A stretch of 2,197 nt of DNA from NCBI RefSeq assembly GCF_003334255.1, contig NZ_QOWU01000140.1. The stretch is one strand, 5' to 3'. Source of the DNA: Escherichia coli (lineage in GTDB: Bacteria > Pseudomonadota > Gammaproteobacteria > Enterobacterales > Enterobacteriaceae). A program made the position numbers and the translations under genes. Every line of letters starts with the position of its first letter. Position 1 is the first letter of the stretch. Below, piece by piece: positions 1-2,197 of the stretch. Under the pieces are notes generated by a model. That model was not told where the DNA came from. It ran no database searches and saw nothing but the letters and a program-made list of their open reading frames with translations.

Positions 1-22
1 AGCTGATAGAAACAGAAGCCAC
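1..22 (-). CDS. insA: IS1 InsA, 5' end only (partial; CDS continues beyond window start)
   Basis: On the - strand, GTG at 22-20 followed by GCT TCT GTT TCT ATC AGC reads (M)ASVSIS, the InsA N-terminus, at the expected distance from the IRL. Confidence 0.6.
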
Positions 23-54
23 TGGAGCACCTCAAAAACACCATCATACACTAA

Positions 55-77
55 ATCAGTAAGTTGGCAGCATCACC
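55..77 (-). repeat. IS1 terminal inverted repeat (IRL, insA-proximal), 23 bp
   Basis: ATCAGTAAGTTGGCAGCATCACC at 55-77 is the reverse complement of the IS1 IRL GGTGATGCTGCCAACTTACTGAT. Confidence 0.85.
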
Positions 78-282
78 TCATGGTGATGGTAATAAAGAGC
101 ACTTTTTTACGCCCTATTCTGTCGCCCATTTTGCCGAAAATAAATGCTCCGACAATACGCGCCACATAACCTGCACCGTAGGTTCCCATTGCCAGAATTA
201 ACGCCATTGCCGTTGATGATTCAGGAAAAAATATTTCATGAAACACTAACGCTGCGCCGAGCGAATATAACTGGAAATCCAT
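73..282 (-). pseudogene. MFS transporter (metabolite:H+ symporter-like, ProP/ShiA/KgtP type) 5' fragment, truncated by IS1
   Basis: The 69-aa ORF contains the TM1 motif DFxLYS..AALVF..FFP and MFS signature G-x-x-x-D-R-x-G-R-K-K (FGKMGDRIGRKKVL) with the spacing seen in ProP/ShiA/KgtP. Native sequence stops at position 78; the last Arg codon spans the IS1 junction and the TGA stop (75-73) lies inside IS1. A protein of roughly 400+ aa is expected, so more than 80 percent is missing. Confidence 0.75.
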
Positions 283-697
283 AATTCACAGGTGTTTTTT
301 CCCATCCTGTGGTTTCCTTGGCGTTTTCTAGGTTTTTTCAGATAGTTGCATTTTTTTAAAAAGCATCCTAAGTTCGATCTCAGTGTCTATCTGGGGCCTA
401 TTTCTGTCCCATATATGCCCCAAAAAAACTCCCCAACAGATAAGTAGTTTTTTCATGGATTTATGCGTAAAATCAAGAACGGCTGGAAATCATTCAATAC
501 TCACACTATCGAAAAATTTACCAGCCAATCGCAGCACGTTCTTGCATAAGGTGTGTCTGCGGTTTTTCAACTATTCAGATACATCACTCCCATCACATTC
601 ATTCCTCCGCATCAAAGGCATATAGGCTATATCACCTTGATATTTTTCTTTTTCAGATAAAAACTGTTATCTATGTATACTTTTAAACCCAATCCGT

Positions 698-710
698 GTA
701 GAGTCTCTAC
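698..710. repeat. perfect 13-bp palindrome GTAGAG-T-CTCTAC; candidate protein-binding or recombination site
   Basis: GTAGAGTCTCTAC is exactly self-complementary about the central T. It shares a 12/13 core (CGTnTAGAGTCTC, 695-707) with the site at 1603-1615 and 17/21 matches over 687-707 versus 1595-1615. Confidence 0.4.
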
Positions 711-1055
711 ATAAGATAGTTTGCAGTTGCCGCTTCAGCTTGCGCCATAAACCGCCTGATTTTTGCTGCCACCTGTTAGCATTCCTGTATACCTGAAACG
801 ACAATGTTTATCTACGAACTTTAAGAACACCCAAGATAAAAATTGTCAACTATATCATATATAACACATTACTAATTCGAGGCTATATGAACAGCATACT
901 GATAATCACATCTCTCCTTATCATATTCAGCATTTTTAGTCATGCCCTAATAAAATTAGGGATTGGCATATCCAATAACCCAGACAAAACCGATGTATAA
1001 GTCAACATATCCTGAATCAGACATACAATATCGCAATGAAAATCAATAATATTTT

Positions 1056-1060
1056 AAGGA
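1056..1060 (+). promoter_or_regulatory. Shine-Dalgarno (AAGGA) for small ORF start at 1069
   Basis: AAGGA at 1056-1060, then an 8-nt spacer (atatcttc) before ATG 1069-1071. Confidence 0.4.
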
Positions 1061-1068
1061 ATATCTTC

Positions 1069-1302
1069 ATGAAATCAAAAGACACCCTAAAGTGGTTCCC
1101 TGCGCAGCTTCCTGAAGTAAGAATTATCCTAGGGGATGCTGTAGTGGAAGTAGCAAAACAGGGAAGACCTATCAATACCAGAACATTGCTTGATTACATT
1201 GAAGGAAACATAAAGAAAAAATCATGGCTGGATAACAAAGAATTATTACAAACAGCGATATCAGTTCTTAAAGACAACCAAAATTTAAATGGTAAAATGT
1301 AA
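1069..1302 (+). CDS. hypothetical small protein (77 aa from ATG 1069; 88 aa if upstream ATG 1036 is used)
   Basis: Open frame of 267 nt in AT-rich DNA where stops are frequent. ATG 1069 has an AAGGA Shine-Dalgarno 8 nt upstream; ATG 1036 has none. The translation has protein-like composition and is not low-complexity. No family recognised by eye. Confidence 0.45.
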   Translation: MKSKDTLKWFPAQLPEVRIILGDAVVEVAKQGRPINTRTLLDYIEGNIKKKSWLDNKELLQTAISVLKDNQNLNGKM

Positions 1303-1475
1303 TATAATAAACTTACTTTTTTATCATTTTTCCACTTTAACAACATTTTGCTCCACTTTTCCACGACCAAACAACTTGAAATCTGGTTAAAATAACACGC
1401 AACACTATTCTTCTTCCTTGAGTCCGCCCGGAACTCGAAAAACAAACCGAGTTAAAGCCATTTTTCACAAAATCG

Positions 1476-1495
1476 ATTTTGGGTCTCACCAAAAT
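1476..1495. repeat. inverted repeat ATTTTGG-gtctca-CCAAAAT
   Basis: Seven-bp perfect arms (1476-1482 and 1489-1495) around a 6-nt spacer GTCTCA, the same hexamer present in the 1603-1617 site. Confidence 0.3.
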
Positions 1496-1602
1496 TACGG
1501 GGTTGCATACGCATTCGTTTATTTTCGAACGTGTACATACAAATATGCACAAAAATAATCATAATTATTTTCTGAGATGCATTATGATATGAACACCAAT
1601 TT

Positions 1603-1617
1603 CGTATAGAGTCTCAC
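1603..1617. repeat. degenerate copy of the 698-710 site, overlapping the recombinase RBS and start codon
   Basis: CGTATAGAGTCTCAC, same orientation as the 695-707 core (offset 908 bp). It has an inner GAG-T-CTC palindrome and ends 1 nt before ATG 1619. GTCTCA recurs at 1621-1626 and 1483-1488. Confidence 0.4.
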
Positions 1618-1618
1618 T

Positions 1619-2125
1619 ATGTCTCAAATTTTTGCTTACTGTCGGATATCAACGCTGGATCAGACCACCGAAAATCAACGCCGGGAAATCGAAAGTGCAG
1701 GTTTTAAAATCAAACCTCAGCAAATAATCGAAGAACACATTAGCGGCTCAGCAGCAACCAGTGAGCGTCCTGGTTTTAACCGGTTGCTTGCTCGCCTGAA
1801 ATGTGGTGATCAATTGATTGTGACAAAACTGGATCGCCTTGGTTGTAATGCAATGGATATCAGGAAAACAGTGGAACAACTGACCGAAACAGGTATCAGA
1901 GTGCATTGCTTAGCATTGGGGGGCATTGACCTGACCAGTCCAACAGGAAAAATGATGATGCAAGTAATTTCAGCAGTCGCTGAATTTGAACGAGACCTTT
2001 TACTTGAACGCACTCATTCCGGGATAGTAAGAGCCCGCGGCGCAGGGAAACGTTTTGGTCGACCACCTGTGTTAAATGAAGAACAGAAACAGGCGGTATT
2101 CGAACGAATTAAGTCAGGTGGGTAA
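1619..2125 (+). CDS. small serine recombinase (resolvase/invertase family), C-terminus truncated by IS1; probably inactive
   Basis: 168-aa ORF. The N-terminus YCRISTLDQ matches the serine-recombinase catalytic motif (Y-x-R-x-S-T, Ser11 as nucleophile). KLDRLG and the [15 protein letters not shown]-helix align by eye with Tn3/gamma-delta resolvase, followed by a GRPP arm. The native sequence ends at 2120, after only the first helix of the C-terminal DNA-binding domain; the last Gly codon spans the IS1 junction and the TAA stop (2123-2125) is inside the IS1 IRR. Confidence 0.85.
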
Positions 2126-2143
2126 TGACTCCAACTTATTGAT
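2121..2143 (-). repeat. IS1 terminal inverted repeat (IRR), 23 bp
   Basis: GGTAATGACTCCAACTTATTGAT at 2121-2143 is the reverse complement of the IS1 IRR ATCAATAAGTTGGAGTCATTACC. Confidence 0.85.
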
Positions 2144-2197
2144 AGTGTTTTATGTTCAGATAATGCCCGATGACTTTGTCATGCAGCTCCACCGATT
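2136..2197 (-). CDS. insB: IS1 InsB (transposase) 3' end, partial; CDS continues beyond window end
   Basis: The - strand of 2136-2197 translates to ...SVELHDKVIGHYLNIKHYQ followed by TAA, the InsB C-terminus. Confidence 0.6.
   Translation of the reverse strand, partial: SVELHDKVIGHYLNIKHYQ

Follow-up and report, generated by a model that had tools for sequence, protein, structure and literature searches.

Do two similar DNA sites, lying 908 bp apart and one of them directly in front of a recombinase gene, delimit a segment that this recombinase could move? The question was raised by a preliminary description of a 2,197-nt stretch of Escherichia coli DNA (hereafter, the window), in which a pair of related sites, A and B, was proposed to border an excisable cassette of about 0.9 kb, by analogy with res sites in front of tnpR genes. 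Our analysis leads to a different picture, which we hold to be probable as a whole: the recombinase gene, pinQ, would be a captured tnpR-type gene accompanied by a decayed res, site B would be the tail of this res remnant, site A would most likely resemble it by chance, and no cassette would lie between the two.

The locus and its two sites

The window corresponds to the left end of the Qin prophage of E. coli K-12 (ydfJ', ynfT, ydfK and pinQ) placed between two IS1 ends (Table 1). Homology to Qin starts at ~77 and ends at 2120, with 100% identity to the K-12 prophage. Positions 1-76 and 2121-2197 we take to be IS1 ends; 55-77 and 2121-2143 form an inverted repeat, and IS1 transposases are annotated at comparable junctions in the genomes compared. 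This IS1-flanked arrangement was colinear in 0 of 5,426 complete E. coli genomes, and none was found in PLSDB. The junction between prophage and chromosome falls at ~271-288: in Qin-free genomes, the match to the window is confined to 78-288, and phage Tritos matches it from 271 on, adjoining the Tritos integrase. The same module is also found in the b-region of intact lambdoid phages, e.g., Tritos and 2H10.

Table 1. Features of the window, with positions counted from its first nucleotide.
Feature	Position	Strand	Basis or remark
IS1 terminal sequence, one inverted-repeat end	1-76	-	abuts the truncated ydfJ fragment
ydfJ' fragment (MFS transporter; host gene interrupted by Qin)	77-288	-	MG1655 annotation
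Conserved non-coding block with promoter-like element ahead of ynfT-ydfK, having site A at the 3' edge	640-708	+	promoter scan, alignment
Site A: palindrome (698-710) plus left extension matching site B at 17/21	687-710	+	
ynfT, 37-aa small protein of the YnaM/YnfT family	887-1000	+	annotation; NCBIfam NF041477, E = 1e-17
ydfK, 77 aa, annotated as cold shock protein YdfK	1069-1302	+	annotation; PHROG 2718 (unknown function)
Remnant of res subsite I (crossover site)	1506-1531	+	six Tn3-type relatives, aligned colinearly
Remnant of res subsite II	1546-1577	+	colinear alignment with Tn3-type relatives
Probable pinQ -10 box, TATGAT	1583-1588	+	alignment with TnpR relatives; promoter function inferred
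Remnant of res subsite III	1587-1608	+	colinear alignment, half-site PWM
Site B as first defined: CGTATA (tail of subsite III half-site), Shine-Dalgarno-like AGAG, spacer TCTCAC	1603-1617	+	
pinQ', small serine recombinase of the TnpR type, truncated by IS1 at residue 167	1619-2120	+	
IS1 terminal sequence, other inverted-repeat end, truncating pinQ	2121-2197	-	

Most of what had been said about the letters themselves is accurate. Site A carries at 698-710 the perfect palindrome GTAGAGTCTCTAC, with 6-bp arms and one central base, and site B reads CGTATAGAGTCTCAC, ending 1 nt short of the ATG at 1619. The two share a 12/13 core in the same orientation (695-707 against 1603-1615), which extends to 17/21 on the same strand (687-707 against 1595-1615), and an exact 9-mer, TAGAGTCTC, is common to both. 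To call them a near-palindromic pair is appropriate for site A, but site B is barely palindromic, with symmetry in GAG-T-CTC only. Moreover, the 12/13 core is distinct from the 13-bp palindrome, to which site B aligns without gaps at 9/13 positions, and is therefore missed even when 3 mismatches are allowed. Nor does the interval hold one small ORF, since two annotated genes, ynfT and ydfK, are located there.

Chance expectations were derived by shuffling the window with its dinucleotide content preserved. In ~31% of the shuffles, a direct match somewhere in the window reached 17/21 or better (p ~0.3 window-wide); exact 9-mer pairs numbered 19 against 16 expected, and 6-1-6 palindromes 2 against 0.78 expected. 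The window even contains another pair of equal quality (655-674/834-853, 17/20). With the leader chosen beforehand, a match this good between the 39 nt upstream of the ATG and some other upstream place was reached in 3% of the shuffles (p ~0.03), and local alignment of the 261-bp neighbourhoods of A and B likewise gave p ~0.03. The shared 9-mer occurs in the 46-kb phage at those two places only, with no third copy. Overall, the similarity is real but marginal, just as the modest statistical support first assigned to it implied. Like chance short repeats in AT-rich intergenic DNA, such matches are frequent in shuffles; unlike them, one copy here falls right at the recombinase leader, and in K-12 the other is perfectly palindromic, which is why the pair looks designed (targeted p ~0.03).

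PinQ and the DNA in front of its gene

PinQ belongs by kinship with the resolvases of Tn3-family transposons. It is 74-78% identical to recombinases adjoining Tn3-family transposases and 83% identical to a copy from a ColV-type plasmid, against 36-38% for the invertases Gin, PinE and Cin. Its recognition helix, TSRQTILR, is as in the TnpR group and unlike that of the invertases, and the protein matches the structures of the gamma-delta and Tn3 resolvases. Intact PinQ (196 aa) has the build of a Tn3-type small serine recombinase, in which the catalytic domain is N-terminal and is followed at the C-terminus by a helix-turn-helix. The IS1 insertion has removed the latter (residues 168-196) from the copy in the window, which is left without a DNA-binding domain. 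That a tnpA remnant might lie close to pinQ was considered and rejected, as three TnpA proteins gave no tblastn match at E <= 1 against the window or the Qin, Tritos and 2H10 loci.

For sampling relatives, plasmid and IMG/VR searches were more productive than genome contigs, which yielded 5 loci only; TnpR genes adjoining Tn3-family transposases are found on Yersinia pestis Java 9 pPCP, Vibrio anguillarum p65, Klebsiella pneumoniae virulence plasmids and pEA29. In these relatives, a three-subsite res with half-sites TGTCCGAAA/TTTCGGACA lies directly upstream of the start codon, a layout resembling that of the Tn3 control. In the plasmid-borne relatives, this res occupies positions -115 to -13, counted from the ATG, and the tnpR -10 box is found between its second and third subsites. 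The half-sites occupy fixed positions in six relatives (-115/-98, -75/-52 and -34/-21), and their columns are more conserved than those of the spacers (0.90 vs 0.68).

The region upstream of pinQ (~1506-1608) is colinear with this res, though decayed. Counted in order, the pinQ half-sites agree with the consensus at 4/9 and 7/9 positions in subsite I (CATACGCAT and TTTCGAACG), at 6/9 and 7/9 in subsite II (TGCACAAAA and TTTCTGAGA), and at 6/9 and 8/9 in subsite III (ATATGAACA and TTTCGTATA). Only one of the six is therefore within one mismatch, the others ranging from 4/9 to 7/9, and the window holds no intact three-subsite res. The assignment of subsite III is less secure than those of I and II because its half-sites stand in direct rather than inverted orientation. 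The surviving half-site, TTTCGTATA (1600-1608), alone stays close to the consensus and makes up the left part of site B; in a scan with a half-site PWM, 1599-1609 scored 10.5 bits, the second-best half-site in the window. The remainder of site B consists of unconserved spacer and the ribosome-binding region: relatives read CGTACAGAAnnTnTCAC there, and K-12-type alleles are 2 nt shorter. The -10 box, near-invariant as TATAAT in TnpR relatives (column identity 0.97), keeps 5/6 positions in pinQ. Alignment of homologous leaders, the check proposed for a conserved motif upstream of the recombinase, thus upholds the half-site part of site B and not the rest. A search of the literature for the half-site sequence gave no usable match.

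Compared with a Tn3-family res/tnpR unit, the locus therefore shares the protein and its recognition helix, a colinear upstream stretch of 115 bp with a common -10 box, and a last half-site adjoining the start codon. It differs in having neither a transposase gene nor a remnant of one and no second res copy, in that 5/6 half-sites carry more than one mismatch with crossover subsite I lost, and in the placement of the pinQ module in the lambdoid b-region, between ydfK and the tail-fibre genes. The most probable account is that a lambdoid phage captured a tnpR-type gene of the Tn3 family along with the res upstream of it, and that this gene is pinQ; the same would hold for pinR, its twin in Rac. 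In Qin, the array would have stayed colinear but decayed, and with the loss of crossover subsite I, no recombination in cis would be expected.

Judged by its sequence, site B lies partly within a vestigial res or operator. It would represent the 3' end of the res remnant, in which the half-site TTTCGTATA is followed by the Shine-Dalgarno-like AGAG and then, after a short spacer, by the ATG. In Tn3 and gamma-delta, resolvase bound next to the start codon represses tnpR. In pinQ, the promoter-proximal subsites overlap the conserved -10 box and the leader, and the remnant half-site may serve autoregulation there as well. If site B has a role, it would most likely be that of a weak autoregulatory operator combined with the pinQ translation initiation region. 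The analogy with res and tnpR drawn at the outset was thus well aimed, given that the leader descends from a Tn3-type res whose subsite III lies beside the -10 box and the ATG, with TTTCGTATA as its best-preserved half-site.

Site A and the segment between the sites

Nothing comparable was found at site A. The res half-site PWM gave it 2.0 bits, against 10.5 at site B and 33 for real dyads, and site A was rejected on this score as a second res copy; two directly repeated copies of res are not present. In the whole 46-kb phage Tritos, no res-like dyad was detected (top score of 15.9 bits vs 33 for real sites). That the surroundings of site A might be an extended, decayed copy of the res-pinQ start was also considered and rejected, as local alignment stops within 24 bp.

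Site A is situated at the 3' limit of a conserved, promoter-like stretch ahead of ynfT-ydfK, and its likeness to site B is most likely a coincidence. A promoter scan placed the element TTCAGA-18-TATACT at 652-681, and in the alignment, substitutions are few in 640-708 and many in 709-800. In 2H10, the phage copy that has diverged furthest, site A is without a change and the sequence 3' of it varies, a point that speaks against a mere coincidence. The palindrome, however perfect in K-12, is broken in most relatives (...CTCTGC), and allele L015 reads ...GTTTCTAC. The two sites change independently across alleles, site A in L015 and site B in L026 and L036-L040. In L036, L039 and L040, which have a longer, plasmid-like leader with two extra bases, the best match to the leader is no longer site A, and its score of 10 equals the shuffle mean. 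A and B resemble each other most where site B is not conserved among relatives. Overall, the resemblance of site A to site B is probably due to chance, although there may be a real relationship between them, as the p of ~0.03 for the leader-limited match and for the neighbourhood alignment and the restriction of the 9-mer to two places in the phage would suggest.

Two further candidates in this region were set aside. Site A as part of an attP arm would stand ~410 bp from the att junction at ~288, which is too far judged by lambda attP, and the Rac-type module, with a different integrase, has site A too. A hairpin at 800-813/834-847 is probably non-functional, since its arms change in 2H10 without compensation.

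If A and B were directly repeated PinQ recombination sites, PinQ would excise ynfT-ydfK as a cassette and autoregulate through site B. The direct-repeat similarity (12/13 and 17/21), the overlap of site B with a genuine res-derived half-site directly upstream of pinQ, and the general knowledge that resolvases such as those of Tn3 and gamma-delta act on directly repeated sites all speak for such an arrangement. However, the survey of related genomes that had been proposed as a check returned the predicted deletion junction in 0 of 2,808 E. coli genomes carrying the flanks and the predicted inversion junction in 0 of 2,720. A single place covered at least 80% of the deletion query, and it proved to be an unrelated 274-bp deletion of 678-951 in strain KR2009. 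All loci holding both flanks retain the segment, the variants being IS insertions or this one off-site deletion, and a published BLAST survey likewise reported no inversions in Qin or rac (PMC12529663). Site A lacks a res half-site, crossover subsite I beside pinQ is destroyed, the similarity falls within unconserved spacer and is absent from L036-type alleles, and PinQ in the window has no DNA-binding domain. The segment between A and B is not an excisable or invertible cassette, and a PinQ-driven one is scarcely credible as an explanation of the pair. With the candidate cassette gone, the finding of the two sites is in itself of little weight.

Alternative readings and the identity of PinQ

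The name pin would suggest that A and B are degenerate crossover sites of the Hin/Gin/Pin type. As with Hin, Gin, Cin and PinE, a small serine recombinase stands here beside phage tail-fibre genes; the orientation of pinQ to stf/tfa resembles that of cin in P1 and P7, and in Mu and e14 the invertase gene is closely preceded by its crossover site. PinQ-dependent inversion of the e14 P segment at pix sites has also been reported (PMC12529663). We scanned the window with a PWM derived from the half-sites of gix, cix and pix, positive controls included. One isolated half-site of good quality, TACTTTTAAACC (678-689, 9.1 bits), adjoins site A, but the full-site scores were 0.7 bits for A and -9.8 for B, against 27-31 for real gix, cix and pix and a best-in-shuffle mean of 6.1. 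Hin-type crossover sites at A or B were rejected on this basis: the 26-bp arrangement of TTNTCNNAAACC-type half-sites around a 2-bp core is present at neither, and no such site exists within 10 kb of pinQ/pinR in Qin, Rac-type prophages, Tritos and 2H10. Furthermore, A and B are direct rather than inverted, a site pair occurring in both orientations in nature was not found, the inversion junction occurs in 0 of 2,720 genomes, and PinQ, with its low identity to invertases and different recognition helix, falls outside their closely related group. We regard the chance of this reading as practically nil.

A less remote, though still unlikely, view is that both sites serve some factor distinct from PinQ, as operators or as leader elements in RNA, and that this factor couples the expression of the cold-shock-annotated ynfT-ydfK to that of pinQ; candidates would be a regulator of phage or host origin, or a motif of the cold-box kind. 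In its favour, both sites lie ~10-40 nt downstream of promoter-like hexamers, site A is within a conserved block, the two known site A variants (A709G and C705T) should still allow a 5-bp RNA stem, and the targeted p is ~0.03. The sequence CGUAUAGAG bears a loose likeness to the cspA cold box, UGACGUACAGA. Against it, CGTAYAGA in site B already has an explanation, being a repeated half-site for resolvase that is kept in Tn3-type elements without any cold-shock context, the spacing inside the motif differs by 2 nt in L036-type and plasmid alleles, the phage genome has no third copy of the motif, and the literature search gave no transcription start data. No known RNA family came near threshold in Rfam. 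The cold-box-like element accordingly stays a low-probability rival. More improbable still is that the pinQ leader half-site and the ynfT-ydfK leader share a recognition element, CGTRTAGAGTCTC, in K-12-type alleles, bound by PinQ/PinR or another factor that couples the cassette to the recombinase. Were this so, a domesticated resolvase would have become a factor in transcription or looping, for which a second operator had newly arisen.

The reading as a captured tnpR-type gene with a decayed res has consequences beyond the two sites. By descent and recognition helix, pinQ and pinR would have to be re-read as genes of Tn3-type resolvases with a fossil res, not of Hin/Gin-type invertases, and their lack of a neighbouring invertible segment would follow from this descent. 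The preferred DNA target of PinQ/PinR is predicted to be TGTCCGAAA-like. Finally, the same re-reading supplies a control experiment for the recently published view that the e14 P segment is inverted by PinQ directly (PMC12529663).

Sites A and B and the proposed segment between them

Site A (698-710) is the palindrome GTAGAG-T-CTCTAC, and 1 nt separates the end of site B (1603-1617, CGTATAGAGTCTCAC) from the ATG of pinQ. Their core match is 12/13 (695-707 vs 1603-1615), extending to 17/21 (687-707 vs 1595-1615) on the same strand with 908 bp between. The preliminary description had stated the 6-1-6 palindrome, both matches and the 1-nt gap correctly, as rechecking confirmed. Site B is hardly palindromic, however, and agrees with the 13-bp palindrome of A at 9/13 positions only.

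Chance was estimated from dinucleotide-preserving shuffles. Direct matches of 17/21 or better appeared in ~31% of them window-wide, 0.78 palindromes of the 6-1-6 type are expected, and 19 exact 9-mer pairs were seen against 16 expected; individually, these elements are unremarkable. When attention is limited to the 39 nt upstream of the ATG, the A/B match reaches p ~0.03, the value also obtained by local alignment of the 261-bp neighbourhoods of the two sites, with an extent of at most 24 bp. Overall, the resemblance is real but marginal, and the modest statistical support claimed earlier is borne out.

It had also been proposed that the pair bounds an excisable segment of ~0.9 kb, and that related genomes be checked for its absence or inversion. 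We built artificial queries spanning the junctions that an A x B deletion or inversion would create, designed so that normal loci cover at most half of each. The deletion junction occurred in 0 of 2,808 flank-carrying genomes and the inversion junction in 0 of 2,720. A single deletion-query match had at least 80% coverage, an unrelated deletion equivalent to 678-951 in E. coli KR2009, and the remaining structural variants were IS insertions. BLAST surveys in a 2025 paper on PinQ found inversions in e14 only, not in Qin or rac (PMC12529663). Neither a res half-site (best 2.0 bits) nor a Hin-type crossover site (full-site 0.7 bits vs 27-31 for gix/cix/pix controls) is present in site A itself. 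Since neither junctions in genomes nor a res or Hin-type site at A were found, we reject the proposal: A and B are not a recombination pair. The natural 274-bp deletion in KR2009 removes site A and the ynfT start, leaves ydfK and pinQ intact, and has end points coinciding with neither site.

The res remnant upstream of pinQ and the descent of PinQ

Half-sites with the consensus TGTCCGAAA/TTTCGGACA precede the recombinase gene of six Tn3-type relatives at constant distances from the ATG, and column conservation is 0.90 in the half-sites and -10 box versus 0.68 in the spacers. The three-subsite layout before tnpR in Tn3, fetched as a control, is similar. In pinQ the leader is colinear with this res array but decayed.

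Features of the locus and of the res array (window positions; for relatives, positions relative to ATG)
Feature	Position	Details
ydfJ'	to ~288	minus strand; host gene, interrupted
Non-coding prophage DNA	between ydfJ' and ynfT	600 bp
ynfT	887-1000	37 aa
ydfK	1069-1302	77 aa; annotated as cold shock protein
Spacer ydfK-pinQ		316 bp
pinQ	starts 1619	
pinQ subsite I, left half-site	1506-1514	consensus match 4/9
pinQ subsite I, right half-site	1523-1531	consensus match 7/9
pinQ subsite II, left half-site	1546-1554	consensus match 6/9
pinQ subsite II, right half-site	1569-1577	consensus match 7/9
pinQ -10 box TATGAT	1583-1588	consensus match 5/6
pinQ subsite III, first half-site	1587-1595	consensus match 6/9
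pinQ subsite III, last half-site TTTCGTATA	1600-1608	consensus match 8/9
Relatives, subsite I	-115 / -98	26-bp palindrome
Relatives, subsite II	-75 / -52	
Relatives, TATAAT box	between subsites II and III	almost invariant
Relatives, subsite III region	-34 / -21	

The last half-site of subsite III, at 10.5 bits the second among res half-sites window-wide, makes up the left portion of site B. When upstream regions are aligned, as the preliminary description had advised, this half-site is kept, but the rest of site B (GAGTCTCAC) falls in a stretch that varies among relatives (AGAAATTTTCAC, GGAAAGTTTC, AGAAGATCTCAC) and includes Shine-Dalgarno-like purines. Such a combination of half-site tail and variable stretch indicates that site B is, in all likelihood, the 3' end of a vestigial res site joined to the translation start. 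The expectation of a res-like site before a small serine recombinase gene was thus right for site B in an evolutionary sense. Recombination in cis is not expected because the crossover subsite has been lost; subsites II and III might still be bound to some extent, which would allow autoregulation.

The top-scoring res-type half-site of the window, GTTTCGGTCAG (14.4 bits, 1880-1890, minus strand), lies inside the pinQ coding sequence, and another, CTGTCGGATAT (9.5 bits, 1639-1649), 20 nt past the start codon; both may reflect chance or coding constraint. In the leaders of alleles L036, L039 and L040, the best internal repeat is ATATGTACA in subsite III versus ATATGTACA in the left half of subsite II (equivalents of 1587-1595 and 1546-1554), a surviving trace of the repeats within the former res site.

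PinQ shares only ~42% identity with Gin in a phage search, and 36-38% with Gin, PinE and Cin by direct comparison; its C-terminal recognition helix, TSRQTILR, is that of the TnpR group, unlike that of the Hin/Gin-type invertases. Its relatives are 74-83% identical overall (TnpR resolvases, 74-78%). A plasmid DNA search gave ~1,400 records at 68-86% nucleotide identity, with alignments reaching 40-77 bp beyond the start codon on its 5' side. Among the loci fetched, relatives adjoin Tn3-family transposases on Y. pestis Java 9 pPCP (tnpA and tnpR divergent), V. anguillarum p65 and a K. pneumoniae virulence plasmid; others lie beside plasmid partition genes (pEA29) or on ColV-type plasmids. No transposase remnant was found near pinQ. 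Judging from these sequence comparisons (loci 1619-2120 and L001:5542-6132), PinQ and its Rac twin PinR are Tn3-type TnpR resolvases by descent. No pix- or gix-like sites were found close to their genes. Such descent, together with the lack of nearby sites, fits poorly with a publication (PMC12529663) according to which the e14 P segment is inverted directly by PinQ acting at pix sites. What lambdoid prophages carry here is the familiar Tn3 res/tnpR module in decayed form.

Reading of site A

A conserved block at 640-708, holding a promoter-like TTCAGA-18-TATACT, has site A at its 3' border; the site may form part of the promoter-proximal stretch of ynfT-ydfK. In most relatives the palindrome of site A has CTCTGC, and in one GTTTCTAC. 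The two sites vary independently, with A alone changed in the L015 prophage and B alone in alleles L026 and L036-L040. L036, L039 and L040 carry the longer leader form, which the plasmid has as well (TAGAAGATCTC), and in these alleles site A has lost its rank as top match to the pinQ leader (best score 10, equal to the shuffle mean); therefore, the exact 9-mer identity hinges on a 2-nt difference in one allele class only. In the complete genome of phage Tritos, res-like dyads are absent and the 9-mer does not occur a third time. That both sites serve as one kind of operator or leader element seems to us improbable; for site A, a chance resemblance is the preferred reading.

Three AGATAAAAAYTGT-like motif copies lie upstream of ynfT (655-674, 801-813 on the minus strand, and 834-853). 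The direct copies match at 17/20, and the inverted one creates a potential 14-bp hairpin (800-813/834-847). A conserved hairpin is unlikely, since its left arm is altered in phage 2H10 without a compensating change.

Prophage context and IS1 borders

Positions 77-2120 match E. coli K-12 at 100% identity and are the left end of Qin, a cryptic lambdoid prophage. By their sequence, 1-76 and 2121-2197 are the two IS1 ends; they form an inverted repeat, as expected. The left-side IS1 truncates ydfJ', and the right-hand one cuts pinQ after residue 167/196, so that the helix-turn-helix (DNA-binding) domain is gone. The 2,044-bp Qin fragment, bracketed by two same-orientation IS1 ends, resembles a composite element; no colinear copy of this arrangement was found among 5,426 complete E. 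coli genomes or in PLSDB, so it may come from a Shigella or from a strain not yet sampled. Directly 3' of ydfK (1321-1368) are short T-rich repeats with CCAC ends (tttttCCACtttaacaacattttgctCCACttttCCACgacc), where no terminator-like hairpin was found.

The ynfT-ydfK-pin module also occurs in Rac-type prophages, with homology beginning at 511-525. Intact lambdoid phages, Tritos and 2H10 among them, carry it within the b-region between tail-fibre genes on one side and attP/int on the other. Phage 2H10 and the L015 prophage are ~63 bases longer in the interval from ydfK to the res remnant (in 2H10, between the equivalents of 1304 and 1310), and their distance from site A to the ATG is 988 vs 925. 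In Rac-type prophages a class I SAM-dependent methyltransferase gene adjoins the module on the upstream side of ynaM (L003:1980-3010), and one is also found beside the PinQ-like recombinase of the Erwinia plasmid pEA29 (L020:3467-4126).
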